From a bacterium (GTDB taxonomy: Bacteria > Arandabacterota > Arandabacteria > Arandabacterales > JALGWA01), in the NCBI GenBank assembly GCA_050125095.1, contig JASFEA010000081.1, forward strand, positions 1 through 14,727: 14,727 nt of DNA. The letters run 5' to 3'. The notes below the pieces were generated by a model. That model did not search any database, was not told where the DNA came from, and worked only from the letters and a program-made list of their open reading frames with translations. The position numbers and the translations under genes are program-made. The first letter of the stretch is position 1. The number at the start of each line of letters is the position of its first letter. Positions 141 to 12,001 of this stretch are shown piece after piece.

Positions 141-3011
141 ATGAAACCCGCCGCCCCTGTCGCAGCTGCCGCGATTACTATACTGCTCATGATCCCGCTG
201 ACGGCCCCGCCGCCCTCGCTTGCCCTCAAGGCCGAGCAATACGAAGCCTTCGACGAGGCCATACGCGGGGCCTTGCTCAACATGGGCATGACGCCCGCCG
301 ACATGCGAATAAGGCATGACTACGCCGAGCCCGACAAGTTCCGGCTCGCTATAGTCGACTCCCTCATGCACAACCCCGCGAGCCTGCTTGAGCAGGTCGA
401 CCGGCTCGCTTTGAAAGTCGAGCGCAGCGCGGCGGCGTGCGACCTCTCTTCCATGCTGTGGAGGGCCATGGATATCGAGCCCGCGACAGCGGTCGAGACG
501 GGTGAGGTCCCCAGGGTGAGAAATGTGGCGGGCCGCCTCAGGCATCTGCCTGGGGACACCCGGGTCCACCTGGAAGAATACTTGAGCAGTCTGGGGCGCA
601 TGTCCCGGCTTCTCGAGAGGGCGCGCGGGCCCTTGCGGGACCATGTCGACTTTCTCGAGACGGAGGCCTCGGCGCTGGTGACGCCCAAGGCCGAATACGA
701 AGACCTGGGGCCGTTCGAGCTCCATGACATCGAGGAGATGGAGTCGGCGCTTGCCGACTCAGTTCTCAGCCTGAGCGAGCTCGTCAACCTGCCCGAGCTC
801 GCAGGCATGTGCGCACTCGGCATGAAGTCCGCAGAAGATCTCGCAGCGGGGCTCGGGCCCGCAACGGTGGATATCGGCGACCATGCACGCTACGGCGATA
901 AGTCGGTGTCATTTAACGGTATGGAATGCAGCGTAACCGGGAAGGTAGCCTACTTCGGCATGACGGCGTACGGTCCGATCGTAGTAGGTGGCCCCTCCGA
1001 CAACACTTACACGGGCTGCTTCGCCCTCATCGCGGACCTGGGCGGCAACGACAGGTACACGCTGCACAGCCACCCCGACGTCAACTTCCGGCTCATAATC
1101 GACTACCATGGCGCGGATATTTACGAGTCACTGGACCAGACCGGCGTCGCCGGCATCAGGTTCGGCACGTCCGTTCTGATTGACCTCGAGGGCGATGACA
1201 CTTACAGAGCCGCCGACATGTCACTGGGCTCGGCAACTTATGGCGGCGCCCTGTTATACGACGTGAGGGGCGACGACATCTACGAGGCGGGAGCATTCTC
1301 CCAGGGCGCGGGTTTCCTGGGCGTCGGCGCCGTCGTGGACGGCGAAGGCAACGACAACTACACCGCCGGCATGCAGTCCCAGGGTTTCGGCTACGTGATG
1401 GGCTCGGGGCTCATACTCGATAAGACCGGCAACGACACCTACTACACCAGGATGTCGCAGAAAGACATATTGCGCTATGAGGACCACTACCTCACCCTTT
1501 CCCAGGGCTGCGCCTTCGGGGCCAGGCCCGACTACTCAGGCGGCATCGGGCTTCTCATCGACCTCAGGGGGAACGACCTCTACTACAGCGACATATTCGG
1601 CCAGGGCGTCGGCTACTGGTTCTGCGTGGGCGGCCTCATCGACAGGCAAGGGCATGATTATTACTGTTCATACCAGTACGCCCAGGGTGCCGGCGTTCAC
1701 CTGGCATTCGGGCTCCTCGTCGACGAACAGGGAAACGACTTCTACCAGAGCAAGGGCGTATCCCAGGGCTGCGGGCACGACCTCTCGCTCGGGCTCCTGG
1801 CGGATTTCTCCGGCAACGACTGCTTCACAGTCACCGACCTCAGCCAGGGCGCCGGCAATGCCAACGGCACCGGCATCATCTTCGACGCGGACGGCGTGGA
1901 CTCATACTCCTCCAAGAACAGGACCAATGTCAGCGGCTACGGCAATTTCCGCCGGGAGTTCGGCAGCATCGGCCTGCAACTCGACCTCGTGGGCCGGGAC
2001 TACTACTCGGCCCGGGGGCGGAACGACGCCCTGTGGGAAAGCGGCCAGTACGGCCTCGGGATGGACATACCCGGCGAGGCCGCCAGGGCAGATGGCGATA
2101 TCCTCATCGACGAGTCAGGCCTCATCGAACGGGATTACACCCCCCCGGAGCTCTTCATCCTGGCCTCCAGGGGGGAGCCGCGCTTCAGACAGTGGCACGA
2201 ATACGGCTTCGAAGCCATGGTTGAAGACACGGCCTCGACAATCGAATATCTCCGCACCGTGCTTGACACCAAAGTGGCAAGGGAGCGGCACACCATAAAG
2301 GATATACTGCGAGCGATCGGCAGCCCTTCGGTTGGCATGCTGTCGGCATCGGTGCTCGAAGACAACGACCTCGCCAAATCCGAGGCGAGCTGGATACTCG
2401 GTCTCATAGGCGACGCCGGGGCCTTCGACGCGCTCATACATCTCTCGCGCGCGCCCGGCTGGAAGCAGAGGTCGAGCGCGCTCAACGCTCTCGCCAAACT
2501 CAGGGACCTCTCGGCCGCGCAGAGGGACGCCCTGGAAGCGCGCGCAAAGCAAGTCCTGGATGACCCGGATGAGGTCTTCTATGTCAAGAAGGACGCGGCT
2601 TACGCTGCCGGGAGGCAGGAATTGACAGGCGCACTCCCCCGGCTCATGGAGGCGCTGGAGAGCGACCATTACTCGGTGCGCTACGCATCGGCCGAGGCCA
2701 TGCGCGGCCTCTCCCTGGAACACGGGGACGAAGTCTACCGCGGTCTGCGCGGGAGAATAGGCGGCTTTTCGAGCCTGGCCACGGTGGGCGCGCTATACGC
2801 CGCGGGCGCCCTCACCGACAAGCAGAAGCTGGCCATAATAGACGAGGTGCTGGACGGCGGGTATTCAGGTGATGCTCATGTGGCGGTGGCGGCCGCCAGG
2901 CTCCTCGCCACTGTCGGTGAGGGCCGAAACCGCGAGAGGCGCGAGACGAGACTCCTTGCCGCAGTCCCGGAAGAGTCCTGGCAGGTCCGGGCTATGCTCG
3001 AGGGCGAGTAG
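141..3011 (+). CDS. Secreted multi-domain protein: Sec signal peptide, acidic helical N-domain, ~13 tandem ~26-aa Gly-rich repeats (beta-solenoid-like), and C-terminal HEAT/PBS-lyase-type repeats. Function unknown.
   Basis: Longest ORF in the window, with AGGAGG 5 nt upstream of the ATG at 141. The N-terminus MKPAAPVAAAAITILLMIPLTAPPPSLALKA is a Sec-type signal peptide. Residues ~285-640 carry periodic motifs SDNTY, GGNDRY, HGADIY, EGDDTY, RGDDIY, EGNDNY, TGNDTY, RGNDLY, QGHDYY, QGNDFY, SGNDCF, DGVDSY and GRDYY, each preceded by an SQGxGxxxGxGLLxD-type segment. Residues ~740-940 show paired-helix repeats such as ALIHLSRAPGWKQRSSALNALAKL and LMEALESDHYSVRYASAEAMRGL, typical of HEAT/PBS-lyase repeats. 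No catalytic motif recognised. Confidence 0.8.
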   Translation: MKPAAPVAAAAITILLMIPLTAPPPSLALKAEQYEAFDEAIRGALLNMGMTPADMRIRHDYAEPDKFRLAIVDSLMHNPASLLEQVDRLALKVERSAAACDLSSMLWRAMDIEPATAVETGEVPRVRNVAGRLRHLPGDTRVHLEEYLSSLGRMSRLLERARGPLRDHVDFLETEASALVTPKAEYEDLGPFELHDIEEMESALADSVLSLSELVNLPELAGMCALGMKSAEDLAAGLGPATVDIGDHARYGDKSVSFNGMECSVTGKVAYFGMTAYGPIVVGGPSDNTYTGCFALIADLGGNDRYTLHSHPDVNFRLIIDYHGADIYESLDQTGVAGIRFGTSVLIDLEGDDTYRAADMSLGSATYGGALLYDVRGDDIYEAGAFSQGAGFLGVGAVVDGEGNDNYTAGMQSQGFGYVMGSGLILDKTGNDTYYTRMSQKDILRYEDHYLTLSQGCAFGARPDYSGGIGLLIDLRGNDLYYSDIFGQGVGYWFCVGGLIDRQGHDYYCSYQYAQGAGVHLAFGLLVDEQGNDFYQSKGVSQGCGHDLSLGLLADFSGNDCFTVTDLSQGAGNANGTGIIFDADGVDSYSSKNRTNVSGYGNFRREFGSIGLQLDLVGRDYYSARGRNDALWESGQYGLGMDIPGEAARADGDILIDESGLIERDYTPPELFILASRGEPRFRQWHEYGFEAMVEDTASTIEYLRTVLDTKVARERHTIKDILRAIGSPSVGMLSASVLEDNDLAKSEASWILGLIGDAGAFDALIHLSRAPGWKQRSSALNALAKLRDLSAAQRDALEARAKQVLDDPDEVFYVKKDAAYAAGRQELTGALPRLMEALESDHYSVRYASAEAMRGLSLEHGDEVYRGLRGRIGGFSSLATVGALYAAGALTDKQKLAIIDEVLDGGYSGDAHVAVAAARLLATVGEGRNRERRETRLLAAVPEESWQVRAMLEGE
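940..2120 (+). repeat. Protein-level tandem repeat array inside the 141..3011 CDS: ~13 units of ~26 aa (~78 nt), consensus ...SQG-x-G-x3-G-x-G-L-L-x-D-x2-G-[ND]-D-x-Y.
   Basis: Counted directly in the translation. Spacing between successive G[ND]DxY motifs is 26-27 residues, with one unit carrying an insertion. The units are divergent at nucleotide level, so they are ancient rather than recently duplicated. Confidence 0.6.
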
Positions 3012-3041: not shown

Positions 3042-3584
3042 CTAGCCCCGCGCACGCAGCGCCTCGCCCAGGGCCTCATGATAGACGTCCAGGTCGTCAG
3101 CCCCGAAGAGCACGAAAATGACCTTATCCAGGCTGGTCGCATCGCCAAAGTGATCGAGAACCGCGTCCACGGCGACGCGGGATGCCTTCTCTATGGGGTA
3201 CCCGTAAACGCCCGTGCTGATCGACGGAAAGGCGATGGTCTTGAAGCCGCGATCCACAGCAAGCGCGAGGCTCTTGTCATAGGCGCTTCTCAGCAGCCCC
3301 TCTTCCCCCTTATCTCCCCCCCGCCAGACCGGTCCAACGGTGTGAATCACATAGGCCGCCGGGAGATTGCCGGCTGTCGTGATCACCGCCTCGCCCGTGG
3401 GGCATCGGCCGATCTTACGGCATTCCGCCATTATGGCCGGCCCGCCGGCCCGGTGTATGGCCCCGTCCACCCCGCCCCCGCCCCTGAGGCCCTCATTGGC
3501 GGCATTGACTACGGCATCCGCTATCACCCGGGTGATGTCGCCGTTGAAGAGCTCTATGAACCTGCCGTTGTATTCGAAGTCCAT
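3042..3584 (-). CDS. Macro-domain protein (Appr-1-p processing / O-acetyl-ADP-ribose deacetylase, YmdB-like)
   Basis: The motif NGDITRVIADAVVNAANEGLRGGGGVDGAIHRAGG is the macro-domain ADP-ribose-binding signature, followed by VITTAGNLPAAYVIHTVGPVW. GGAGG sits 8 nt upstream of the ATG at 3584. The ORF stays open to another ATG at 3614 that has no Shine-Dalgarno, so 3584 is the preferred start. Confidence 0.85.
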   Translation of the reverse strand: MDFEYNGRFIELFNGDITRVIADAVVNAANEGLRGGGGVDGAIHRAGGPAIMAECRKIGRCPTGEAVITTAGNLPAAYVIHTVGPVWRGGDKGEEGLLRSAYDKSLALAVDRGFKTIAFPSISTGVYGYPIEKASRVAVDAVLDHFGDATSLDKVIFVLFGADDLDVYHEALGEALRARG

Positions 3585-3634
3585 TTCATCTACCTCCCCC
3601 CCGCACAATATCATTTTCCCGAACCGTTTTCAGC

Positions 3635-3663
3635 TTGACATTGATCTAAACTAATACTAATAT
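3635..3663 (+). promoter_or_regulatory. Sigma70-type promoter, TTGACA(3635-3640)-17 nt-TAATAT(3658-3663), driving the rrf2-ferredoxin-cooS operon
   Basis: Perfect -35 hexamer, optimal 17-nt spacer, and a 5/6 -10 hexamer (TAATAT) ~20 nt upstream of the AGGAGA RBS and the ATG at 3683. The surrounding region is AT-rich in a GC-rich genome. Confidence 0.5.
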
Positions 3664-3676
3664 AGTATCAGTTTAG
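3646..3676 (+). promoter_or_regulatory. Imperfect palindrome CTAAACTAATACT-aatat-AGTATCAGTTTAG (13-5-13, 12/13 arms pair) overlapping the -10 box; candidate Rrf2 autoregulatory operator
   Basis: The inverted repeat is read directly from the sequence. Rrf2 regulators (IscR, NsrR) bind AT-rich palindromes overlapping their own promoters. Its position between the -35 box and the RBS fits a repressor site. Confidence 0.4.
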
Positions 3677-3682
3677 GAGACT

Positions 3683-4099
3683 ATGATGAAACTGCTGACC
3701 AAAGACACGGATTACGCGGTGAGGGCCATCGTCCATCTCGCCCGCAACCCCGACGGCTACCAGTCCTCGCGCGAAATTGCAAAGGCCGAGGGCATACCTC
3801 TTCAGTTCCTGAGGGCCATACTCCAGAGGCTTACAAAAGAGGGCCTGATCGTCTCGCGCGAGGGAGTCAGGGGCGGCGTTAAACTCAAGGCCAGGCCCCG
3901 CGACGTGCGGGTGAGCGACATCATAAGGATTTTCCAGGGCGATATAGAGCTCTCCGAGTGCATGTTCAGGAAAAAACTCTGCTCCAACCGGTCCACCTGT
4001 GTTCTGAGAGCGAGAATAAAGTCAATCGAAGAGATGGTGAACAGGGAATTCGAGAAGGTGACGATTGCGAAATTGATAGACGACCTGGGAGGAAAATAA
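3683..4099 (+). CDS. Rrf2-family transcriptional regulator (IscR/NsrR-like, probable Fe-S cluster sensor)
   Basis: The N-terminal wHTH signature MKLLTKDTDYAVRAIVHLA and SSREIAKAEGIPLQFLRAILQRLTKEGLIVSREGVRGG match Rrf2. Three Cys at C93, C100 and C106 (C-x6-C-x5-C) sit where IscR and NsrR ligate their Fe-S cluster. RBS AGGAGA precedes the start, and the stop overlaps the next start (TAATG). Confidence 0.85.
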   Translation: MMKLLTKDTDYAVRAIVHLARNPDGYQSSREIAKAEGIPLQFLRAILQRLTKEGLIVSREGVRGGVKLKARPRDVRVSDIIRIFQGDIELSECMFRKKLCSNRSTCVLRARIKSIEEMVNREFEKVTIAKLIDDLGGK

Positions 4100-4938
4100 T
4101 GAAAAGAGACATGATACATATCGACGACGAGAAATGCGACGGGTGCGGGGCCTGCATACCCAATTGCCCGGAAGGCGCGATCCAGATTATCGACGGCAAG
4201 GCCCGGCTCGTCGGGGAGGCGCTTTGTGACGGGCTCGGCGCATGCGTCGGATTCTGCCCGCGGGGGGCAATGACCGTGGAGACGCGCGAGGCCGAGGCCT
4301 ATGACGAGCGCAAGGTGATGGCCAACATAGTGAAGCAGGGCATAAACGTGGTCGCGGCGCATCTCAGGCACCTTGACGACCACGGCCTGGTTTCATACCT
4401 GAATGAGGGTCTCGAGTATCTCAAGCAACACGGCATCGAGATTCCGGACTACAAGCGGCCTCCGAGGGGAGCGGGGGTCTCCCCCTGCAGTTGCGAGGGG
4501 TGGAAACCGCCCGAGCGGGAGGGCGCCTCAGCGACGTCCCGTACAGGCTCGCTCGCGTCCGAACTGAGGCAATGGCCGGTGCAGCTCAAGTTGCTCCCGA
4601 CCAGCGCACCCTATTTCCGGAACGCTGATCTTCTCATCGCCGCCGATTGCGTGCCGTTCGCGCATGGCGGCTTCCACGGCGACCTTCTTAAGGACAAGGC
4701 CGTAATCATGTTCTGCCCCAAGCTCGACCAGGGCATCGAGGATTACATAGAGAAGCTCGCCCGCATATTCGCGGAAAACGACATCAGGTCCATAACGATC
4801 GCGCATATGGAGGTGCCGTGCTGCTTCGGCACCAATCGCGTCATCGAGCAGGCGCTCAAGATGTCGGGTAAGAACATCCCGGTTGAGACGAAGGTCATTT
4901 CTATTCAGGGAAAGGTCCTTGAGACCCGGTCCTGTTAA
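4099..4938 (+). CDS. Iron-sulfur protein: N-terminal 2x[4Fe-4S] ferredoxin domain plus a ~170-aa Cys-rich C-terminal domain of unassigned family; likely electron-transfer partner of the downstream CooS-like enzyme
   Basis: Start ATG at 4099 with GGAGG 6 nt upstream, overlapping the rrf2 stop. The 5' ORF extension back to 3958 overlaps rrf2 and is rejected. CDGCGACIPNCPEGAI and CDGLGACVGFCPRGAM are two CxxCxxCxxxCP ferredoxin motifs. The C-terminal domain carries conserved-looking Cys at SPCSCEGW, AADCVPF, MFCPKLD and VPCCFG. Confidence 0.75.
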   Translation: MKRDMIHIDDEKCDGCGACIPNCPEGAIQIIDGKARLVGEALCDGLGACVGFCPRGAMTVETREAEAYDERKVMANIVKQGINVVAAHLRHLDDHGLVSYLNEGLEYLKQHGIEIPDYKRPPRGAGVSPCSCEGWKPPEREGASATSRTGSLASELRQWPVQLKLLPTSAPYFRNADLLIAADCVPFAHGGFHGDLLKDKAVIMFCPKLDQGIEDYIEKLARIFAENDIRSITIAHMEVPCCFGTNRVIEQALKMSGKNIPVETKVISIQGKVLETRSC

Positions 4939-4977: not shown

Positions 4978-6912
4978 ATGGAAGGCCAGAGGATATCTCA
5001 TCACGAGTCCGTAAAGAAGGCTTATGAGAGAATCAAGAATGACGGCATGAACAACATCTGGGACCGATACGAGGCGCAGGGGATGGGCGGCAACCCCGAC
5101 CAGAGATGCGCGTTCTGCCTGGCGGGCACGCGCTGCGACCTCTGCTCCAACGGTCCCTGCCGGGCCGACGCAGCCAAGGACAAGCGGGGCGTCTGCGGCA
5201 TAAAGGCGGACGGCATGGCCATGCGAATGATGCTGCTCCGAAATGTCATGGGGGCGTCTACGTACCAGTACCACTGCGACCAGACCGTGAAGACGCTGCG
5301 CCTGACGGCATTGGGCGCGACGGACTACCGGATCCGTGAGCCCGAAAAACTCAAGACATTCGCCAAACGCCTCGGCGTGGACACCTCCGGATCGACAGAG
5401 GATACGGCCATCCGGCTCTGCGACTTCGTGCAGAGCGACTTCAATCGCAGCTACCAGGAGCCCAGCAAGGTGGTGGAGGCGCTGGCCCCAGAGGAGCGCA
5501 AGATACTCTGGAATGAGCTCGGCATATTCCCCGGCGGCATACATGGCGAGATAATGTTCTCGACGAGCTCATGTCTCACCAATGTTGACGGCTACTACCT
5601 GAGCCTGGCCCTCAAGGCGATGCGGCTCGGCGTCGCCATGGCCTACCAGAGCCAGATCGTGAACGAATACCTGCAGGACGTCCTCTTCGGCATTCCGCGG
5701 CCGCACAAGGTCAGAGTGGACCTCGGCGTGCTCGACCCGGAATACGTCAACATCCTCCCCAACGGCCACGAGCCCTTCCTCGGCTTCGCGATGGTTGAGC
5801 TCGCGCGGCAAGAGGAGTGGCAGGAAAAGGCGAAGGCTGCCGGCGCCAGGGGGATGAGGATAATAGCCAATATCGAGACAGGCCAGGAGATGATACAGCG
5901 CTGGGAGATGGACGATGTCTTCTACGGCTTCACAGGCAACTGGATAATGCAGGAAGCGGTGCTGGCCAGCGGCTGCGTCGACCTCTTCGCAGCGGACATG
6001 AACTGCTCGATGCCCGTTGATCCAGAGTATGCCGAAAAGTACAAGTTCAAGCTCATACCGGTGAGCGAGCTGGTCGCCTTCGAGGGTGTTACGGATAGGA
6101 TAAACTACATTCCTGAAAAGGCGAAGGAACAGGCGGGGATGCTCCTCGACATGGCCATCGCGAATTTCAAGGAGCGCAAGGGCCGCGTCGAGCCCATTAC
6201 CGGGCTCAGAATGCATGAAGCCATCGCCGGCTTCTCCACCGAGAGCATACTCGAGGTCCTGGGCGGAACGCTTGATCCGCTTCTTGACGCGATCAAGGCC
6301 GGCTCGCTGCGCGGCGTGGTCGGCCTCGTCTCATGCACGTCCCTGAGAGACAACGGCCAGGATGTGCATACGGTCAGGCTGGCCGGGGAACTCATCAAGC
6401 GGGATATCCTGGTGCTGTCGCTGGGCTGCGGAAATGCCGCGCTGCAAGTCGCGGGGCTCTGCAGCCCGGAGGCGAAGGAACAGGCGGGGCCCGGGCTCAA
6501 GGCCGTATGTGAGGCCCTGGGGGCCCCTCCCGTGCTGAGCTACGGCACATGCACCGACACCGGGCGGCTGGCCGACCTGCTTGCGGCCATATCCGGTGCC
6601 CTGGGCGGCGTCCCGATCAAAGACCTGCCGGTGGCCGCGGCGGCGCCCGAGTACATGGAGCAGAAGGCGACCATCGACGCGATCTTCGCCCTGGCACTGG
6701 GCCTTTACACCTATGTCAACCCAGTGCCCACGGTAACCGGCGCGCCCGACCTGGTCGGCCTCCTCACCGAAGGCTGCAAGGAGGTGACGGGCGGCGTACT
6801 CGATGTCGAGCAGGACGCGGTGAAGGCCGCCGACAACATCCTTGCGCATATCGAGAGCAACCGCGCCAAACTCGGGCTGGACGGCGCGAAGGCGGCCCAG
6901 AGCGCGGATTAA
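4978..6912 (+). CDS. cooS: Anaerobic Ni-CO dehydrogenase catalytic subunit family (CooS / hybrid-cluster-protein superfamily), divergent member
   Basis: AAGGAGG sits 6 nt upstream of the ATG. Strings characteristic of CooS by eye: NIWDRYEA, GVCGI, NGHEP, AGFSTE, GLKAV, LGCGNAA and SYGTCTD. N-terminal Cys pattern is C44-x2-C47-x5-C53-x2-C56-x4-C61-x11-C73, consistent with a CxxC D-cluster type plus B-cluster ligands. C-cluster ligand positions are present (H264, C343, C453, C484, C525), except that the canonical Cys after the His reads I299-E300. Confidence 0.8.
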   Translation: MEGQRISHHESVKKAYERIKNDGMNNIWDRYEAQGMGGNPDQRCAFCLAGTRCDLCSNGPCRADAAKDKRGVCGIKADGMAMRMMLLRNVMGASTYQYHCDQTVKTLRLTALGATDYRIREPEKLKTFAKRLGVDTSGSTEDTAIRLCDFVQSDFNRSYQEPSKVVEALAPEERKILWNELGIFPGGIHGEIMFSTSSCLTNVDGYYLSLALKAMRLGVAMAYQSQIVNEYLQDVLFGIPRPHKVRVDLGVLDPEYVNILPNGHEPFLGFAMVELARQEEWQEKAKAAGARGMRIIANIETGQEMIQRWEMDDVFYGFTGNWIMQEAVLASGCVDLFAADMNCSMPVDPEYAEKYKFKLIPVSELVAFEGVTDRINYIPEKAKEQAGMLLDMAIANFKERKGRVEPITGLRMHEAIAGFSTESILEVLGGTLDPLLDAIKAGSLRGVVGLVSCTSLRDNGQDVHTVRLAGELIKRDILVLSLGCGNAALQVAGLCSPEAKEQAGPGLKAVCEALGAPPVLSYGTCTDTGRLADLLAAISGALGGVPIKDLPVAAAAPEYMEQKATIDAIFALALGLYTYVNPVPTVTGAPDLVGLLTEGCKEVTGGVLDVEQDAVKAADNILAHIESNRAKLGLDGAKAAQSAD

Positions 6913-6942: not shown

Positions 6943-6983
6943 GGGGCGGTCCCCCGGGGGCCGCCCCCATACATTTGGTATTG
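6943..6983 (+). terminator. Probable intrinsic terminator after cooS
   Basis: GC hairpin GGGGCGG-t-CCCCC/GGGGG-CCGCCCC at 6943-6967, 30 nt after the stop, followed by CATACATTTGGTATTG. The T-tract is imperfect. Confidence 0.45.
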
Positions 6984-7030: not shown

Positions 7031-7333
7031 ATGATCCTGGATGAACTTAAGGGCGAGATAGTCCTCATCAAGCTCAAGAGCCATGAAGAGCTTGAGACCT
7101 TCGGCGTGCCTTCCTCCAGTATTTACGCCAAGGTGATAGAAATCGACGAGCGCGTGGGCGTCTGGGTGGAGAATCCCAAGTGGTCACCAAAGAAGACCGC
7201 CAAGGAAGACGCGGAGCATATGACCCAGATCCTGATCCGGTGGGAATACGTCGTGGGTTTAATGACATTCCCGGACAGAGAGGGATTCAAGGAGGAAGCG
7301 GAAATAAAGCCCATGGGTTTCGTTACCAAGTAA
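7031..7333 (+). CDS. Hypothetical small cytoplasmic protein (100 aa), no recognised domain
   Basis: GGAGG at 7020-7024 sits 6 nt before the ATG at 7031, so the TTG at 7025 from the ORF track is unlikely. No signal peptide. Local GC (~52%) is below the window average. Sequence MILDELKGEIVLIKLKSHEELETFGVPSSSIYAKVIEIDERVGVWVENPKW... Confidence 0.5.
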   Translation: MILDELKGEIVLIKLKSHEELETFGVPSSSIYAKVIEIDERVGVWVENPKWSPKKTAKEDAEHMTQILIRWEYVVGLMTFPDREGFKEEAEIKPMGFVTK

Positions 7334-7437: not shown

Positions 7438-9177
7438 CTACCTGGCTATGACCACCTTGGCCGTCAGCGCCTCAGCGCCCGTATCAAGGCGCAGGAAGTA
7501 GATGCCGGAGCTCAGGCTGCCGGCCAGGGAACCCGTGGCATTCCAGCCGAGCTCATGGTACCCCTCTTCCCTGCGGCCGTTGACCAGGTCGCGGATATGC
7601 CTGCCGGCCACGTTGTATACCCCGATCCTCACATCGGCGGCCGCCGGAAGCCCGAAAACGATGCTGGTGCTCGACGTCAGGACGCTGCCGCCGGCGACTG
7701 TAAGAACGACCCTGTCAGGAATACCCGCTAGGTCCCCGCCTTCCACGCCCGAGGTCGAACCCCAGAGCGTGAAGTCGGAGTCGCTGGCGTCGGACGCCTC
7801 GTTGGGTACGCCATCGAACGCCACGACCTTTATTCTCGCGGTCTTCGAGTCCATGTCGGGCACCGTCCACATGAAAGACCCGTCATTGACCTCGCCCTGT
7901 GCCAGCGTGTCGGAATAGGTCACTCCTCCGTCGGTCGATAGCACTATGGTTATGCCCGTTATGCGCGCGTTATCGCTCGCCGACCAGGTGATTTCTTGAT
8001 CCGTGTTGTACTCCAGGATCTCGCCGCCATTGGGCGAAGTAAGCTCGACCTCAGGCGGGATGGGGTCCCGCTCTACCACGGGAACCACCGCGAAATCGGG
8101 ATCGCCCGCAAAACGCATACACTCGTTGAGGCCGCATGACGGAACGTCCGCGTTGGCCATCAGGAACGCGTCGCGTACGCTGTATCCCTGGTCCATGTAA
8201 TTGAAGAGGGCGGCCTGCCACATAATGGACTCGGTCCAGCAATTGGCGCACCACGTCTCCGCCATATGGCAGTAGCCAACGGTGGTAGTCGCCTCCCAGG
8301 AGCCCTTGCGGAATGCGTCGGAGAACGACCCGCTGAGGGTGTCGCACATGCCCTCACAGCTTCCCAGAAACGTAAAAGGCATCTTGGCCCGGTTGGCGAT
8401 CCACAGTTCGACTTTGAAAGAGCCGATATCCAGACCGCTTGAACCGTCGCAGCCGTACATGAAGCTGGTCGACCCGCCGTGGTTGAGCTCGTAGAACATG
8501 GCAGTGTGGTCCGACTTGACGTGTCCCCTGATCTGCTCGAGCGTCGGCCACTTGACTCCCTCGGTGGTATAGCCCATGTTCTCAAACCAGGTCTCGGCGT
8601 TCTGGTACCAGCTCGTCCAGGCGCCGTAGTATGGACACTCCCAGGGTCCGGTGAAAGAGAAGCCCTCGGTCGGCGGCGGCACGCCGTCCCCGAGCAGGGC
8701 CCCGGTTGCCGCGTTCACCACCTTTACGACCAGGCGGCCGTCCACGATGCTGCGCACCACCCAGCACGGGTCCGTGGGCGCGGGCTCCAGCGGGAATACG
8801 GCCGACTCGGGGGAGATATAATACAGCCTCGAGAACTGAATCTCGCCGCCCACAGTCGCCTCGGCATCTTCCCGTGATATCAGGCCGGCGGGAAGCGTCT
8901 CCGGGAGGCCGTCCCGCCAGTTGTATCGCCTGTCGAGCAGCTCTCCGGTCTCCCTGTCGAACTGGTAGACGATATTGTCCAGCTCCACGGCTGCCTCGCC
9001 GATCATCCGCTGATGGTAGTATACGATCTTGTCGCCGAACACGCCCTCCCGGAAGGCGCGGTCACCCGACTCGTACTTGCTGAGAAGACCCATAGCCGCG
9101 GACGCGCTGTCCAGCGATACGAGGATCGCAAGGGCGACGAGCGCGGTTACTGCCATATACCTCTTACAAGACTCCAT
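7438..9177 (-). CDS. Secreted Cys-rich putative cysteine peptidase (clan-CD-like His-x41-Cys dyad; tentatively legumain/gingipain/clostripain-type) with a conserved pre-CTD beta-sandwich domain and a Por/T9SS type-A C-terminal sorting domain
   Basis: AGGAGGT sits 7 nt upstream of the ATG at 9177 (MESCKRYMAVTALVALAILVSLDSASAA is a signal peptide). The ORF stays open to 9207 without an RBS. NHGG followed 41 residues later by FTFLGSCEG has the His-Gly...hydrophobic-strand-Cys geometry of caspase-fold peptidases (legumain has H148/C189). The C-terminal ~90 aa (IVFGLP...VRIGVYNVAGRHIRDL...GYHELGWNA...SGIYFLRLDTG...TAKVVIAR) match the T9SS CTD pattern. Confidence 0.75.
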   Translation of the reverse strand: MESCKRYMAVTALVALAILVSLDSASAAMGLLSKYESGDRAFREGVFGDKIVYYHQRMIGEAAVELDNIVYQFDRETGELLDRRYNWRDGLPETLPAGLISREDAEATVGGEIQFSRLYYISPESAVFPLEPAPTDPCWVVRSIVDGRLVVKVVNAATGALLGDGVPPPTEGFSFTGPWECPYYGAWTSWYQNAETWFENMGYTTEGVKWPTLEQIRGHVKSDHTAMFYELNHGGSTSFMYGCDGSSGLDIGSFKVELWIANRAKMPFTFLGSCEGMCDTLSGSFSDAFRKGSWEATTTVGYCHMAETWCANCWTESIMWQAALFNYMDQGYSVRDAFLMANADVPSCGLNECMRFAGDPDFAVVPVVERDPIPPEVELTSPNGGEILEYNTDQEITWSASDNARITGITIVLSTDGGVTYSDTLAQGEVNDGSFMWTVPDMDSKTARIKVVAFDGVPNEASDASDSDFTLWGSTSGVEGGDLAGIPDRVVLTVAGGSVLTSSTSIVFGLPAAADVRIGVYNVAGRHIRDLVNGRREEGYHELGWNATGSLAGSLSSGIYFLRLDTGAEALTAKVVIAR

Positions 9178-9225
9178 GTGCCGACCTCCTAATCCCTCAG
9201 CCTGCAAGCCCAGACAGCCGCATCA

Positions 9226-9426: not shown

Positions 9427-11910
9427 CTACCAGGCAATAACAATCTTGGCCGTTGCTTCACCTCCATCGCTATTGAGCCTTAAGAAATAGATACCAGGGC
9501 CAAGCCTGCCTCCCGCCTCAGTTCTCAAATCCCAGGTTATGTGATGATATCCCGCCTGCCTCTGCCCGCTCATGACGGCTGCAACGCGGCGGCCCGCCAC
9601 GTCGTAGCAGTCTATACTCGCGCGGGAAGGTGACGGCAAACCGAATTCGATCTTCGCAGGCGCGCCGGCGAGCGCGCCGCCCTCCACGCTTATCGAAACC
9701 GCGTCCGGAACGCGCGGGGCGTCGGGGTCGTCGACTCCGGACTGGTAACCCCAGAGCCTGAAATTCGCGTCGCTCTCGTCCTCGCCCTCATTCGAGGCGG
9801 CGTCGCGCGCGACGATCCTAATGCGCGCGACACCGCAGTCGATATCGGGGGCGTACCACGAATAGACCCCGTCGTCTGCTTCGCCCGAGGCGATCGTGTC
9901 GGGGAAGGTCACGCCACCGTCGGTGGAGAGCAGTATGCATACGGACGTAACGCCTATGTTGTCGGAGGCCGTCCACTCTATGTCATAGGTCGAGCCGAAG
10001 TGGAAGACTTCGCCGCCGTTCGGGCTGGCAACTGTCACGGCGGGCGGCTCTAAGTCTATTACGGCCGATTCGCAGGACCTGACGGCGACATCGTCGATGG
10101 CCGCTTCCACGATTGATCCGGGAGAGGAGTCCTGGGCCACGAACCTGAACTTCATCTGGCCGGTGAGCTCGACGTAGTCCTCGAGATAGAACTCCTTCTT
10201 CGTCCAGGCCCTTCCGCTGTATGAAAGCGTCTCGAGATTCTGCCAGGTCGCCCCGTCATCGCTCGACACGTCCACCACGAAGTCGTCGTCATTGGGGCCG
10301 GATCCCGTGTCGCTGGCGTACCACCTGTAGTAGGTCAGAACCGCCGAGTCGACATCGGAAAGGTCGACGGCCGGGCTCACGAGCGTTGTCCGGCCCCCGT
10401 CCACGTCATAGGCGCCCTGCGAATCGCCGGGATTGGACTGCTGCGTGAAGAAGCAGGTCGTTCCCGTCCCCGGCGTGTGGTCGTCCCCGGGCTGTACTTC
10501 CTCCGGTCCCCAGTAAGTGGCGTTGGGGTCGCCGCGCTCCCACATCCCCGTAACGGCCCCGTCGCCGGGCGCCCCGGAGGTCCACCCCAGGTCGGACTCG
10601 AAGTCATCTTCGAATACAGTTACGACTTCGCCTCCCTGCAGCACGAGTGCTCTGGTGGAACTCCCCTGGTCGGATGTTATCTCAATCTGGAAAACGAGCG
10701 CGCCGCAGGCCTGCGCCGAAGCGTCAACGGCAAAAGAAAAATGGGGACTGTATGATTCGAGCACCGCTCCCTTGTCTATATCGGGGTAGGCCGCCACGCT
10801 ATCGGTCACCGTGACGGAGCCTAGCGTGCTCCGGAGCGTGGCGCTTACATTCGTGGCGGTCTCCGCGCCGATATTGAGAAGCCTGACCGCCAGTATGACG
10901 GGCTCACCGGGCTCGATGTCGCCGTCTCCGTCGCCGGCGCTGTCGTCTATCGTATGGGAGTCATGGAAGAAGTGAACCGTCTGGCCGGGCGTGTAGTTGA
11001 GGGCGTCCGTGGCATAGCCGATATAGCTCGCGCCGTACTTGATGTACATATAGCCGCCGTCGCCCCAGTCGGGCCCCCACGAGTTCTTCATGATCCAGGC
11101 GCCGTCACCGCCGCACATGGTGTCGTCCCAGCCCACGAGCAGCACGCCATGGTTGATCTCGGTGCAGTTCTCCTCATAGCAGCCCCCGGTGTAGGAGCTG
11201 AATCCGCCGCATACCGCGATGGCGCAGGCCACCGGCCCTTCAAGCAACGCCGTCTTTATGGCCAGGACGGTGTCGTCGACATAGTAGTAGGAGTCGAGAT
11301 ACGCCGCCACGTCGCATGAAGAGACCGCACATGCCTCGGTGTCGTTCTCGTGATACGGCATGCACGACTCCCTGACGCCTCCCTGAGTGATGAACAGGTC
11401 ATATGCCGTTTCCATCCAGCCTCCGCTGCAGTCGTCGCCATTGGGGTTGCATACAAGTATGGCCTGCTCTGAGAGGTCCTCTTCCAGACCGCTGTAGATA
11501 AGGATCCGGGACTCGAGAGCCGCGGCCGCGCAAAAAGCCCAGCAGCTCCCGCAGTTGCCCTGGTTCTTGACTGGAGTCACTCCGCCCTGCGTCCGCCAGT
11601 CGAATGAAGACGGGAAGCTCATTCCTTCAGGAGCGGTTATGAGGCGGCCGTCGAGCGCGGCTCTCCGCCTGCGCTCCTGGAGGTCGGGCGGCAGCCTGAG
11701 GCCGAGGAGGCGCTGGAACTCCTCGTCGGTGAGCCGCGAAACCGAGGTCCGGCCCGCCGTCCACGAATACCCTTCCTCCTCAATATTCCGGTTTATGCGG
11801 TCGATCTTGGCCTGCTCGGCCTCCGGGGACAGCTCCGCCCGGAGGCAGGTCCCAGGCCAGACCGCGGCCAGTAGATACACGAGTACTGCCACGATAGCGG
11901 TCGATTTCAA
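9427..11910 (-). CDS. Secreted papain-family (C1A) cysteine peptidase with CARDB-like domain, MAM-like domain, conserved pre-CTD beta-sandwich domain and Por/T9SS type-A C-terminal sorting domain
   Basis: Papain catalytic signatures are present: Q in KNQGNCGSCWAF (Cys148), INHGVLLVGWDD (His280), NSWGPDWGDGGYMYIKYG (Asn/Trp). FEDDFESDLGW...GMWERG...DDHTPGTGTTCFF...RFVAQD...IDDVAV resembles a MAM/jelly-roll domain. The C-terminal IEFGLP...IDCYDVAGRRVA...GYHHITWDLR...PGIYFLRLNSDGGEATAKIVIAW is a T9SS CTD. The ORF is open to a TTG at 11988 with no RBS. A TTG at 11910, preceded by AAAGGGGCGG, gives a canonical signal peptide MKSTAIVAVLVYLLAAVWPGTCLRA, so the start is uncertain between 11910 and 11988. 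Confidence 0.8.
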   Translation of the reverse strand: MKSTAIVAVLVYLLAAVWPGTCLRAELSPEAEQAKIDRINRNIEEEGYSWTAGRTSVSRLTDEEFQRLLGLRLPPDLQERRRRAALDGRLITAPEGMSFPSSFDWRTQGGVTPVKNQGNCGSCWAFCAAAALESRILIYSGLEEDLSEQAILVCNPNGDDCSGGWMETAYDLFITQGGVRESCMPYHENDTEACAVSSCDVAAYLDSYYYVDDTVLAIKTALLEGPVACAIAVCGGFSSYTGGCYEENCTEINHGVLLVGWDDTMCGGDGAWIMKNSWGPDWGDGGYMYIKYGASYIGYATDALNYTPGQTVHFFHDSHTIDDSAGDGDGDIEPGEPVILAVRLLNIGAETATNVSATLRSTLGSVTVTDSVAAYPDIDKGAVLESYSPHFSFAVDASAQACGALVFQIEITSDQGSSTRALVLQGGEVVTVFEDDFESDLGWTSGAPGDGAVTGMWERGDPNATYWGPEEVQPGDDHTPGTGTTCFFTQQSNPGDSQGAYDVDGGRTTLVSPAVDLSDVDSAVLTYYRWYASDTGSGPNDDDFVVDVSSDDGATWQNLETLSYSGRAWTKKEFYLEDYVELTGQMKFRFVAQDSSPGSIVEAAIDDVAVRSCESAVIDLEPPAVTVASPNGGEVFHFGSTYDIEWTASDNIGVTSVCILLSTDGGVTFPDTIASGEADDGVYSWYAPDIDCGVARIRIVARDAASNEGEDESDANFRLWGYQSGVDDPDAPRVPDAVSISVEGGALAGAPAKIEFGLPSPSRASIDCYDVAGRRVAAVMSGQRQAGYHHITWDLRTEAGGRLGPGIYFLRLNSDGGEATAKIVIAW

Positions 11911-12001
11911 TAAACCGCCCCTTTCCAGGCCCGGCAACGGGGACTCCCGCTCACGGAAAGCCCGATAATATATATCTTTACGAATCAATTATACCACAAT
12001 A

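Follow-up and report, generated by a model that had tools for sequence, protein, structure and literature searches.

A probable CooS-V-type member of CODH clade D, with glutamate in place of a cluster-ligating cysteine, in a predicted operon with an Rrf2 regulator and a ferredoxin-domain protein

The DNA analysed here is a 14,727-nt stretch of a bacterial genome (contig JASFEA010000081.1, henceforth the window). Three genes follow one another on its forward strand: rrf2 (3683-4099), a gene encoding a 279-residue protein that we call Fer4X (4099-4938), and a gene encoding a 644-residue homologue of carbon-monoxide dehydrogenases (4978-6912, henceforth cooS-V-like). The rrf2 product is an Rrf2-family regulator (Pfam Rrf2, E=3e-33) with three cysteines, C93, C100 and C106, in a C-x6-C-x5-C arrangement; against NCBIfam it is assigned to the superfamily only, scoring below the cut-offs of IscR, NsrR, RirA, CymR and the SUF regulator, and in near-identical contigs its start is called at the second ATG (137 aa). 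Fer4X combines an N-terminal 2x[4Fe-4S] ferredoxin domain (Pfam Fer4 families) with a C-terminal AF_0155 domain (PF27217, detected on the 99%-identical protein P0121). Its homologues contain invariant Cys and His residues, a PDB search with its sequence returned no relative outside the ferredoxin domain, and a literature search on AF_0155 and PF27217 found nothing relevant. The ATG of fer4X overlaps the TAA of rrf2 by 1 nt (TAATG), while the 39-nt gap between fer4X and the cooS-V-like gene holds a Shine-Dalgarno-like motif, AAGGAGG, close 5' of the ATG.

Upstream of rrf2, a consensus scan returned a sigma-70-like pair of hexamers (TTGACA-17 nt-TAATAT, 3635-3663, forward strand, 10 of 12 matches), a pattern match that we take as a putative promoter. 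Over its -10 hexamer, a repeat search found a 14-3-14 inverted repeat (3646-3676) with arms CTAAACTAATACTA and TAGTATCAGTTTAG that are 93% complementary. The core of this palindrome, AACTAATACTAATATAGTATCAGTT, occurs once in the window and was matched in none of 200 shuffles, and a degenerate form lies 5' of rrf2 at five related loci (L001, L004 and L081-L083); judged by its sequence, the repeat is probably the operator of the Rrf2 protein. At the other end, RNA folding placed a GC-rich hairpin (11-bp stem, 3-nt loop) at 6943-6967 on the forward strand, 31 nt past the stop codon, as a weak candidate for the end of the operon: it lacks a U-tract, its whole-segment z-score of -1.4 is not significant against shuffles, and a terminator scan 3' of the cooS-V-like gene flagged no intrinsic terminator. 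The gene order rrf2-fer4X-cooS-V-like is identical in near-identical contigs and at the MAG loci L001, L004 and L022, and the three genes are predicted to form one operon with the cooS-V-like gene last. The initial annotation of this DNA had missed the promoter, the palindrome, Rrf2 and Fer4X.

The cooS-V-like product contains a Prismane domain (Pfam PF03063, residues 53-614, E=3e-141). Its closest PDB sequence match by phmmer is CooS-V of C. hydrogenoformans (7B7Q, E=3e-207, residues 5-634), to which it is 52% identical over the full length, and the second-ranked match is the CODH of Thermococcus AM4 (6T7J, E=2e-116). A Foldseek search with an AF2 model also placed CooS-V first (7B9A/7B7Q, E=8e-53, TM 0.82); the lead over canonical CODHs (TM 0.78-0.80) is small because the confidence of the model is only moderate (pLDDT 73, below 50 near the cluster-binding loops). 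The protein scores 726 bits against the NCBIfam CODH equivalog TIGR01702, for which the cut-off is 478.

The initial annotation had singled out bases 5860-5895 (forward strand, ATAATAGCCAATATCGAGACAGGCCAGGAGATGATA; encoded peptide IIANIETGQEMI, I295-I-A-N-I299-E300-T-G-Q-E-M-I306) as carrying Ile-Glu where canonical CODHs carry a Cys-Cys pair, and sequence alignments confirm this. In phmmer alignments, I299-E300 (5872-5877, forward strand) stands opposite the 'CC' of 'CCTGNE' in 6T7J and in C. hydrogenoformans CODH-IV (6ELQ), and opposite the 'IE' of CooS-V (7B7Q); E300 corresponds to Glu295 of CooS-V and to Cys295 of CODH-II. All three alignments are free of gaps within about 100 residues of the motif, which rules out a Cys pair merely shifted by an indel, a caveat raised at the outset, and the register is unchanged in a MAFFT alignment of 67 sequences. 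Within the pair only the second position matters: the first Cys is not a ligand and is already Leu, Met or Thr in Cys-retaining relatives. The second is a ligand of the unique iron, as the initial annotation stated: in CODH-II the exo Fe1 of that cluster is bound by Cys295 (Jeoung 2022, PMC9311411). The exchange of Cys (TGY) for Glu (GAG) takes three base changes. The pattern x-E-[TS]-G-Q-E recurs in the 120 nearest database homologues, bar two that the pattern search missed, and Glu is encoded at 79 of 80 genome loci from Bacteria and Archaea (GAG in 42, GAA in 37); because both synonymous codons are used across these loci, we take the Glu to be under purifying selection.

The remainder of the active site follows CooS-V as well, with 17 of 17 signature positions mapping one-to-one. 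The other ligands listed in the initial annotation are all intact by alignment: H264 (5767-5769; His259 of CooS-V, a ligand of the reduced hybrid cluster), C343 as part of N342-C343 (6001-6006; Asn337-Cys338), and C453, C484 and C525 (6334-6552; Cys449, Cys480 and Cys521, the last of which is the persulfide), with roles as given for CooS-V (PMC9311411). To these E561-Q562-K563 (6658-6666) adds E561, which by alignment is the second carboxylate ligand (Glu556 in CooS-V, Glu494 in HCP), two residues before the conserved Lys (Jeoung 2022; Inoue 2019). Y96 (5263-5265) takes the place of the acid-base His93 of CODH-II, a replacement that Inoue 2019 gives as a D-1 signature; the column reads Tyr in this protein, in CooS-V (Y91) and in the homologue P0241, and His in 6T7J and 6ELQ. 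The Cys motifs at 5107-5196 map onto C38, C41, C47, C50, C55 and C68 of CooS-V and comprise the D-cluster motif (C44 and C47; type III, a [2Fe-2S] cluster in CooS-V) and that of the [4Fe-4S] B-cluster (C53, C56, C61 and C73). Canonical CODHs have Gly at position 47 and Cys at position 52, where this protein has C47 and R52, and the C-x2-C with a Gly41-to-Cys exchange that marks the type III D-cluster is found here as C44 and C47. All of these features lie on the forward strand.

These residues complete the signature that Inoue 2019 gives for group D-1 ('type III D-cluster, H E C C C C Y K'), and they include every residue type of a hybrid cluster (His, Glu, four Cys, Glu), matching the ligands of hybrid-cluster proteins (HCPs) according to published structural comparisons. 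By contrast, the one His and five Cys that ligate a canonical C-cluster are not all present, the Cys295 equivalent being Glu, and of the canonical acid-base pair His93/Lys563 the protein retains K563 but has Y96 for the His.

The protein shares with CooS-V (7B7Q, 7B7T, 7B95, 7B97 and 7B9A) a full-length CODH scaffold, every hybrid-cluster residue (His, Glu, Asn-Cys, three Cys, Glu-x-Lys), the Tyr that replaces the acid-base His, and the C-x2-C bridging-cluster and B-cluster motifs; it differs in an insertion of five residues (GMGGN) ahead of the D-cluster motif, in a C-terminal tail of 10 residues and in being encoded in a predicted operon with Rrf2 and Fer4-AF_0155 genes. With canonical Ni,Fe-CODHs (CODH-II 1SU6, 6T7J and D. 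vulgaris 6B6V) it shares the fold, the dimer-type scaffold, the B-cluster motif and five of six C-cluster ligand positions, but it departs from them in having Glu for Cys295, Tyr for His93, an additional Glu at the second residue ahead of the catalytic Lys, and an Asn where they have Gln in front of the second ligand Cys; Ni-maturation genes are also missing from its surroundings. With HCPs (classes I-III; D. vulgaris 1W9M and D. desulfuricans 1GN9) it shares the superfamily PF03063 and, according to the literature, an equivalent set of active-site ligands and a similar expected Fe/S/O cluster chemistry, whereas its architecture is of the CODH type with a bridging cluster and its Glu does not occupy the sequence-aligned position of the HCP Glu. 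Membership in HCP proper is ruled out by the scores: the NCBIfam hydroxylamine reductase model NF003658 gives 25.8 bits where 367 are required, and 1GN9 is matched only partially, over residues 408-609 (E=5.5e-5).

The initial annotation had also raised the question whether the clade of this protein lacks the Cys as a whole, and this proved to be the case. In a neighbour-joining tree of 58 full-length sequences, computed without bootstrap support values, the Glu-bearing proteins (the subclade of the protein described here, CooS-V and P0241) are monophyletic and set apart from the Cys-retaining groups of clade D, with CooS-V inside. Their sister group retains the Cys, yet already has the equivalents of N342 and E561 and the C-x2-C D-cluster motif. 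Unlike CooS-V, from which a long branch separates it, our protein falls in a tightly conserved subclade (77-100% identity) that spans bacterial and archaeal phyla; loci of Methanosarcinales are 75-76% identical to it, and relatives were matched in at least 584 stretches of species-representative genomes. Among representatives chosen at 50% identity the Glu clade collapses to very few sequences, and that set is informative for outgroups alone.

What such an exchange does to the cluster has been published for CooS-V, in which Glu295 replaces Cys295 and a Ni-free, HCP-like Fe/S/O hybrid cluster replaces the C-cluster (Jeoung 2022, PMC9311411). CooS-V is inactive towards CO and CO2, turns over hydroxylamine at a low rate (kcat 0.13 s-1) and showed no detectable NO reduction (Jeoung 2022, PMC9311411); its cluster restructures reversibly with the redox state, the substrate channel is redox-gated (PMC9311411), and the cluster potentials lie about 300 mV below those of HCP (Jeoung 2022). 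Group D-1 was defined by Inoue 2019, which describes the active-site residues as identical to those of HCP, and the Cys-to-Glu exchange had earlier been examined in a mutant study cited as Inoue 2013. Replacing Cys295 of CODH-II by Ala or Glu (C295A, C295E) leaves the enzyme deficient in Ni and without CO activity, and recent CODH surveys leave out Glu-bearing sequences of this type. The exchange, the altered cluster and the lost CO activity were thus all known before (Inoue 2013, Inoue 2019, Jeoung 2022), and our finding is a rediscovery of them. Seen against this work, the initial annotation was right that the carboxylate is what HCPs use and that the protein looks intermediate between CODH and HCP; its proposal of a modified cluster without CO oxidation agrees with the CooS-V homologue, that of hydroxylamine reduction finds weak backing in the slow turnover of CooS-V, and that of NO reduction runs counter to what was found for CooS-V. 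We are confident that the product of 4978-6912 is a CooS-V-type enzyme (CODH clade D, Inoue group D-1) rather than a CO dehydrogenase, and it probably acts as an operon-encoded low-potential reductase.

The gene neighbourhood offers candidates for the partners of such an enzyme. No member of the cooC, acs or cooF families, nor cooJ, cooT or ech, was found among the ORFs of the window or within 10 kb on each side in a near-identical longer contig, which was reached through the Fer4X protein P0121 (an exact-sequence look-up of the CooS-V-like protein, P0001, in the contig index gave no match). The initial annotation had already reported cooC, acs and cooF as missing from the window, but it overlooked the ferredoxin-domain gene directly upstream. 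Of the context associations given for D-1 in Inoue 2019 (a COG1063 dehydrogenase, HypA and HypB), none was seen in the window; conversely, we found no mention of a Fer4-AF_0155 neighbour in the accessible portions of Inoue 2019 or of the 2026 eLife genomic-context study of clade D. Fer4X adjoins the cooS-V-like gene in about a quarter to a third of related loci and is its same-strand neighbour in 24 of 81. Because it is adjacent in a minority of loci and is also encoded far from such genes, Fer4X is neither an obligate nor an exclusive partner; indeed, four homologues that were sampled have no Prismane gene in their neighbourhood. Elsewhere, Fer4X homologues are encoded beside genes for Rrf2, rubrerythrin, desulfoferrodoxin, flavodiiron protein, rubredoxin and hemerythrin, and related cooS-V-like loci contain an NAD(P)H:rubredoxin-reductase-rubredoxin fusion, a flavodiiron protein, an FMN reductase and a cupin. 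PADLOC defence-system models gave no matches to the large flanking proteins.

By homology to CooS-V, the cooS-V-like product would be a homodimer on the CODH scaffold, with C44 and C47 of both subunits sharing a bridging [2Fe-2S] cluster and C53, C56, C61 and C73 carrying a [4Fe-4S] B-cluster. The former C-cluster site (H264, E300, C343, C453, C484, C525 and E561, with N342 nearby) would hold a Ni-free hybrid cluster that is [4Fe-3S] when reduced and turns into an Fe/S/O cluster with a Cys persulfide on oxidation; this cluster type, like the predicted lack of CO activity, is carried over from CooS-V. Since the substrate channel would open only in the reduced state, the protein would be expected to work as a reductase, at low potential and on a small oxidant. 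The 2x[4Fe-4S] protein Fer4X is, on sequence grounds, the probable electron-transfer partner and probably delivers electrons to the D and B clusters. By way of the palindrome over the -10 element, the three-Cys Rrf2 protein is likely to act as the repressor of the operon, and it may be released from DNA when its cofactor is modified. Taken together, we infer that the CooS-V-like protein works as a low-potential reductase within a regulon for redox or nitrosative stress.

Two other roles for the protein are improbable, to a similar degree. One is that it serves CO metabolism in vivo despite the Glu, as a slow or specialised CO oxidiser or a CO2 reducer from a subclade that differs from CooS-V. 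Its identity to CooS-V leaves room for such a difference, it passes the CODH equivalog, and Methanosarcinales carry close relatives; in M. acetivorans, the D-1 proteins CooS1F and CooS2 have been suggested on genetic grounds to aid CO removal when the CO pressure is high (Rother 2007, as relayed by citing papers). The distance to CooS-V, the single characterised member, and these genetics also weigh against the low-potential reductase that we favour. Against a role in CO metabolism stand both active-site replacements, at Cys295 and at the acid-base His, the behaviour of the CODH-II variants and of CooS-V itself, the lack of the Ni-insertion genes cooC, cooJ and cooT nearby and the exclusion of such sequences from recent surveys. 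Moreover, C. autoethanogenum grows autotrophically without cooS2 (D-1), which does not oxidise CO in an acsA knockout, and the clade D CooS of A. fulgidus apparently has no role in CO metabolism, according to the 2026 eLife study.

The other is that the protein is mainly a sensor or regulator of redox state or small molecules, its morphing cluster reporting redox state rather than performing catalysis. For clades C and D, the 2026 eLife study put forward a part in regulation or redox sensing on the basis of co-occurrence, and the very slow hydroxylamine turnover and reversible restructuring of CooS-V, together with the predicted co-transcription with a regulator, would fit such a role. However, the protein consists of a full-length Prismane scaffold alone, with no DNA-binding or signalling domain; its electron-transfer chain of D and B clusters is complete, an electron-carrier gene lies next to its own, its neighbours at other loci are O2 and NO detoxification enzymes, and the operon already encodes a dedicated Rrf2 sensor. 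Finally, we found no support for reading the Ile-Glu as an artefact of misalignment, of sequencing or assembly error, or of a decaying pseudogene, which we regard as next to impossible given the gap-free alignments, a segment (292-306) without any Cys, three base changes between GAG and TGY, an intact ORF, Glu under both codons at the orthologous loci and an identical gene in independent assemblies.

The reading of 4978-6912 as a CooS-V-type reductase bears on how its family is recognised in genomes. The protein and its relatives are publicly annotated as 'anaerobic carbon-monoxide dehydrogenase catalytic subunit' because TIGR01702 does not separate D-1 proteins from true CODHs; with relatives so widespread, metagenome surveys can thus overestimate the potential for CO metabolism where position 295 goes unchecked. 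The enzyme is very widespread and very conserved, and the exchange itself is of little consequence here, having already been published. The recurrent context of Rrf2, Fer4-AF_0155, rubredoxin-reductase and flavodiiron genes provides candidates for the electron donor and the inducing signal. Tentatively, this uncharacterised subclade and the Fer4-AF_0155 protein may form a dedicated, Rrf2-controlled low-potential reductase module of anaerobes that acts on reactive nitrogen, oxygen or sulfur species, in which AF_0155 could be an electron-donor or cluster-maturation partner of hybrid-cluster CODH homologues.

The 644-codon open reading frame on the forward strand at 4978-6912 encodes a CooS-V-like protein in which positions 5860-5895 (ATAATAGCCAATATCGAGACAGGCCAGGAGATGATA) translate to IIANIETGQEMI, residues 295-306, which places I299-E300 at 5872-5877. 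In pairwise HMMER alignments, its 'IE-TGQE' pairs with 'CC-TGNE' of the CODHs of Thermococcus AM4 (6T7J) and C. hydrogenoformans (CODH-IV, 6ELQ) without an indel near the motif, and the register of I299-E300 against 'CC' is identical in a MAFFT alignment of 67 sequences. The initial annotation had read Ile-Glu in place of the canonical Cys-Cys pair, with the remaining C-cluster ligands intact. This reading was exact: H264, C343, C453, C484, and C525 are all kept. The second Cys, named there as an iron ligand in CODH-II, is indeed the Fe1 ligand Cys295 (Jeoung et al., 2022, PMC9311411). The first Cys has no ligand role and gives way to L, M, or T in relatives that retain the ligand Cys, so the diagnostic value lies in the second position alone.

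The best solved relative is CooS-V of C. hydrogenoformans (7B7Q and four sister entries, E=3e-207, residues 5-634), the next PDB sequence match following at E=2e-116. A Foldseek search with an AlphaFold2 model of only moderate confidence (pLDDT 73) likewise placed CooS-V first (E=8e-53, TM 0.82, 51-52% identity), with canonical CODHs behind at TM 0.78-0.80, a small margin explained by the common fold and the moderate model confidence. CooS-V keeps the CODH scaffold with Glu295 in place of Cys295, is devoid of Ni and of CO/CO2 activity, and carries a hybrid cluster that interconverts between reduced [4Fe-3S] and oxidised [4Fe-2S-S*-2O-2H2O] forms, with cluster potentials ~300 mV below those of HCP and slow hydroxylamine reduction (kcat 0.13 s-1; PMC9311411). 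Each CooS-V residue named in that work has a one-to-one counterpart in the window protein: C38 and C41 of the bridging [2Fe-2S] cluster correspond to C44 and C47; C47, C50, C55, and C68 of the B-cluster to C53, C56, C61, and C73; Y91, which replaces the acid-base His, to Y96; and, at the hybrid cluster, H259 to H264, E295 to E300, N337-C338 to N342-C343, C449, C480, and C521 to C453, C484, and C525, and E556-x-K558 to E561-x-K563. The D-1 signature of Inoue et al. (2019, PMC6344411), a type III D-cluster, H-E-C-C-C-C, Tyr, and Lys, is complete, and the same authors had already pointed out that hybrid cluster proteins have exactly the ligands of D-1. In sequence, the window protein falls outside the HCP family (25.8 bits for the NCBIfam hydroxylamine reductase model versus a cut-off of 367), and among PDB entries the HCP structure 1GN9 matches only partially (E=5.5e-5). 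By homology to CooS-V, the initial interpretation of an enzyme intermediate between CODH and HCP, with a modified cluster and a non-canonical activity, appears essentially right. The Cys-to-Glu feature is already known from mutagenesis, classification, crystal structures, and later reviews, and its recognition here is a rediscovery.

The Glu ligand and Tyr acid-base substitutions speak against a residual role in CO metabolism, which is nonetheless suggested by M. acetivorans genetics and by the 48% sequence divergence of the window protein from CooS-V. A CODH-II C295E mutant noted by Inoue et al. (PMC6344411) lost Ni and CO activity and gained hydroxylamine reductase activity, and C. autoethanogenum and A. 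fulgidus genetics also count against such a role. So does the lack of maturation genes. As the initial annotation had stated for the window, cooC, acs, and cooF are absent there, and a near-identical 355-kb contig has none of them within 10 kb to either side. A sensing rather than an enzymatic role, the reading of a 2026 eLife genomic-context study, is countered by an electron-transfer chain that is intact in the window protein and by the enzyme-rich gene context. An artefact is refuted, since GAG differs from TGY at 3/3 bases, independent assemblies agree on the protein and the gene order, x-E-[TS]-G-Q-E is present in 118/120 of the nearest database homologues (the regular expression missed the remaining 2), and Glu is encoded in 79/80 orthologous genome loci (the best 80 of at least 584) by both GAG (42) and GAA (37), a mix that is, at the codon level, the pattern of purifying selection.

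A search of 1.84 billion cluster representatives yielded full-length matches that were aligned and placed in a neighbor-joining tree without support values. There, all sequences with Glu fall into a single clade, made up of the query subclade, CooS-V, and database representative P0241. The sister group (P0243, P0245, and P0246) retains the Cys; the C-x2-C D-cluster, the Asn that precedes the second ligand Cys, and Glu-x-Lys are already in place, and the acid-base position is Asn, which together make up the D-2 signature of Inoue et al. This placement is in line with the scheme of trait evolution in Jeoung et al. (PMC9311411). The query subclade is very tight, the best 120 database matches being 77-100% identical to the window protein, yet it is 52% identical to CooS-V. 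A one-genome-per-species scan matched at least 599 stretches, 584 of them encoding relatives. In the best 80 loci of at least 584, the CooS-V-like protein is 74-81% identical across distant phyla of Bacteria (Dehalococcoidia, WOR-3, Acidobacteriota, Desulfobacterales, Syntrophorhabdus) and Archaea (Asgard archaea, Bathyarchaeia, Thermoplasmata, Methanofastidiosa, Methanosarcinales), among others. The product of the adjacent gene, Fer4X, is only 35-55% identical in such loci (36% versus 75% in L080), which points to unusually strong constraint on the CooS-V-like protein or frequent lateral transfer. Public records (NCBI, JGI) name the protein and its subclade 'anaerobic carbon-monoxide dehydrogenase catalytic subunit' because it passes the NCBIfam equivalog TIGR01702 (726 bits versus a cut-off of 478). 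Passing without the Cys295 ligand amounts to systematic over-annotation of CO-oxidation potential; recent CODH surveys explicitly leave out sequences with this substitution at Cys295.

The CooS-V-like gene is the last in a compact same-strand unit, rrf2, fer4X, cooS-V-like. A putative σ70-like promoter, matched by consensus (TTGACA, 17 nt, TAATAT; 3635-3663, forward strand), is overlapped at its -10 element by a candidate operator, a 14-3-14 inverted repeat (AACTNANWCTAANATAGTNTCAGTT; 3646-3676) with 93% complementary arms and a core that is unique in the window and matched in 0/200 shuffles. Degenerate forms lie upstream of orthologous rrf2 genes in genome loci L001 (1944-1968) and L004 (2281-2305) and in the near-identical contigs L081-L083 (L081, 9551-9575). 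The Rrf2-family regulator (3683-4099, forward strand; Pfam E=3e-33) has three Cys, C-x6-C-x5-C, and scores under the cut-off for every named Rrf2 subtype in NCBIfam. Its TAA is overlapped by one base by the ATG of the 279-aa Fer4X (4099-4938, forward strand), in which an N-terminal 2x[4Fe-4S] ferredoxin domain is followed by a C-terminal one from a recent Pfam family, PF27217 (AF_0155), and which has invariant H88, H91, H95, C132, D183-C184, H193, C206-PKLD, and C241-C242. Between fer4X and the CooS-V-like gene lie 39 nt that include an AAGGAGG motif.

Divergent from the rrf2 promoter region is a Macro-domain protein gene (3042-3614, reverse strand); the layout recurs in L001 and L022, so the two may share a regulatory region. 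A perfect 11-bp GC-rich hairpin (6943-6967, forward strand) without a U-tract, 31 nt past the CooS-V-like stop, may be the end of the operon and has no significance against shuffles. Downstream of the CooS-V-like gene, at a distance of 120 nt, lies a 100-aa ORF (7032-7333, forward strand) that has a GGAGG ribosome-binding site and no match in precomputed Pfam annotation; gene calls in near-identical contigs include it (L081, 12933-13235). Elsewhere, a 956-aa protein (141-3011, forward strand), syntenic in L081-L083 and with homologues in 3/80 genome loci (best 80 of at least 584), has an N-terminal signal-like hydrophobic segment, more than 10 short repeats ending G-[ND/D]-D-x-Y (GGNDRY, GDDTY, GNDNY, GNDLYY, GHDYY, GNDFY, and others), and a C-terminal HEAT-repeat region. 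Two large secreted-looking proteins (7438-9207 and 9427-11988, both reverse strand) end in a Big_7 and FlgD_ig module resembling a sorting-domain tail; they are a papain-family C1 peptidase and a protein without a recognisable catalytic domain.

Across 81 loci (the window and the best 80 of at least 584 relatives), Fer4X is the commonest neighbour of the CooS-V-like gene, upstream or downstream, in Bacteria and Archaea alike: it lies on the same strand within 3.5 kb in 24/81 and within 400 nt in 17 of the 65 flanked by 1 kb or more on each side. An rrf2 gene of one of two subtypes is directly upstream in 10/81, most being preceded at the -10 region by a subtype-specific palindromic or near-palindromic sequence; the second subtype, in WOR-3-like loci (L015, L021, L031, L065, and L076), has another palindrome, AATACCTTACT...AGTAAGATATT, in the same place. 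Within ~3.5 kb of the CooS-V-like gene in Asgard and other archaeal loci (L034, L043, L050, L066, L070, L079, and L080), a divergent NAD(P)H:rubredoxin-oxidoreductase-rubredoxin fusion, a small cupin, FMN reductase, and flavodiiron protein recur, a gene set typical of O2/NO detoxification. Fer4X is not an exclusive partner, since none of four sampled homologues adjoins a Prismane gene. Upstream of these four are Rrf2 (two) and TetR-family (one) genes, and two have stress-type neighbours: rubrerythrin, desulfoferrodoxin, NifU, and hemerythrin at one locus, and flavodiiron protein, rubredoxin, and rubrerythrin at an Rrf2-preceded one. Rrf2-Fer4X recurs as a module within the kind of gene sets with which anaerobes typically defend themselves against O2, ROS, and NO.

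That the CooS-V channel is open only when the cluster is reduced (PMC9311411) argues for a reductase. Low-potential electrons would enter the CooS-V-like enzyme at the surface-exposed bridging [2Fe-2S] cluster, plausibly from the putatively co-transcribed Fer4X, and reach the hybrid cluster via the B-cluster. Rrf2 is probably a repressor that acts on the operon at the palindrome and would let go of it upon a change in the cofactor bound by its Cys, with NO, O2, and Fe-S status as candidate signals.

In its accessible portion, the 2026 eLife study describes no clear pattern in clade D context beyond ~10% transcriptional regulators, and the available text of Inoue et al. (2019, PMC6344411) associates D-1 with a COG1063 dehydrogenase and HypA/HypB; these portions make no mention of a Fer4-AF_0155 neighbour. 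What is modestly new is the Rrf2/Fer4-AF_0155/CooS-V-like operon with its putative operator, the stress-type neighbourhoods, and the unusual cross-domain conservation of the subclade, which are testable leads to the function of CooS-V-like proteins.
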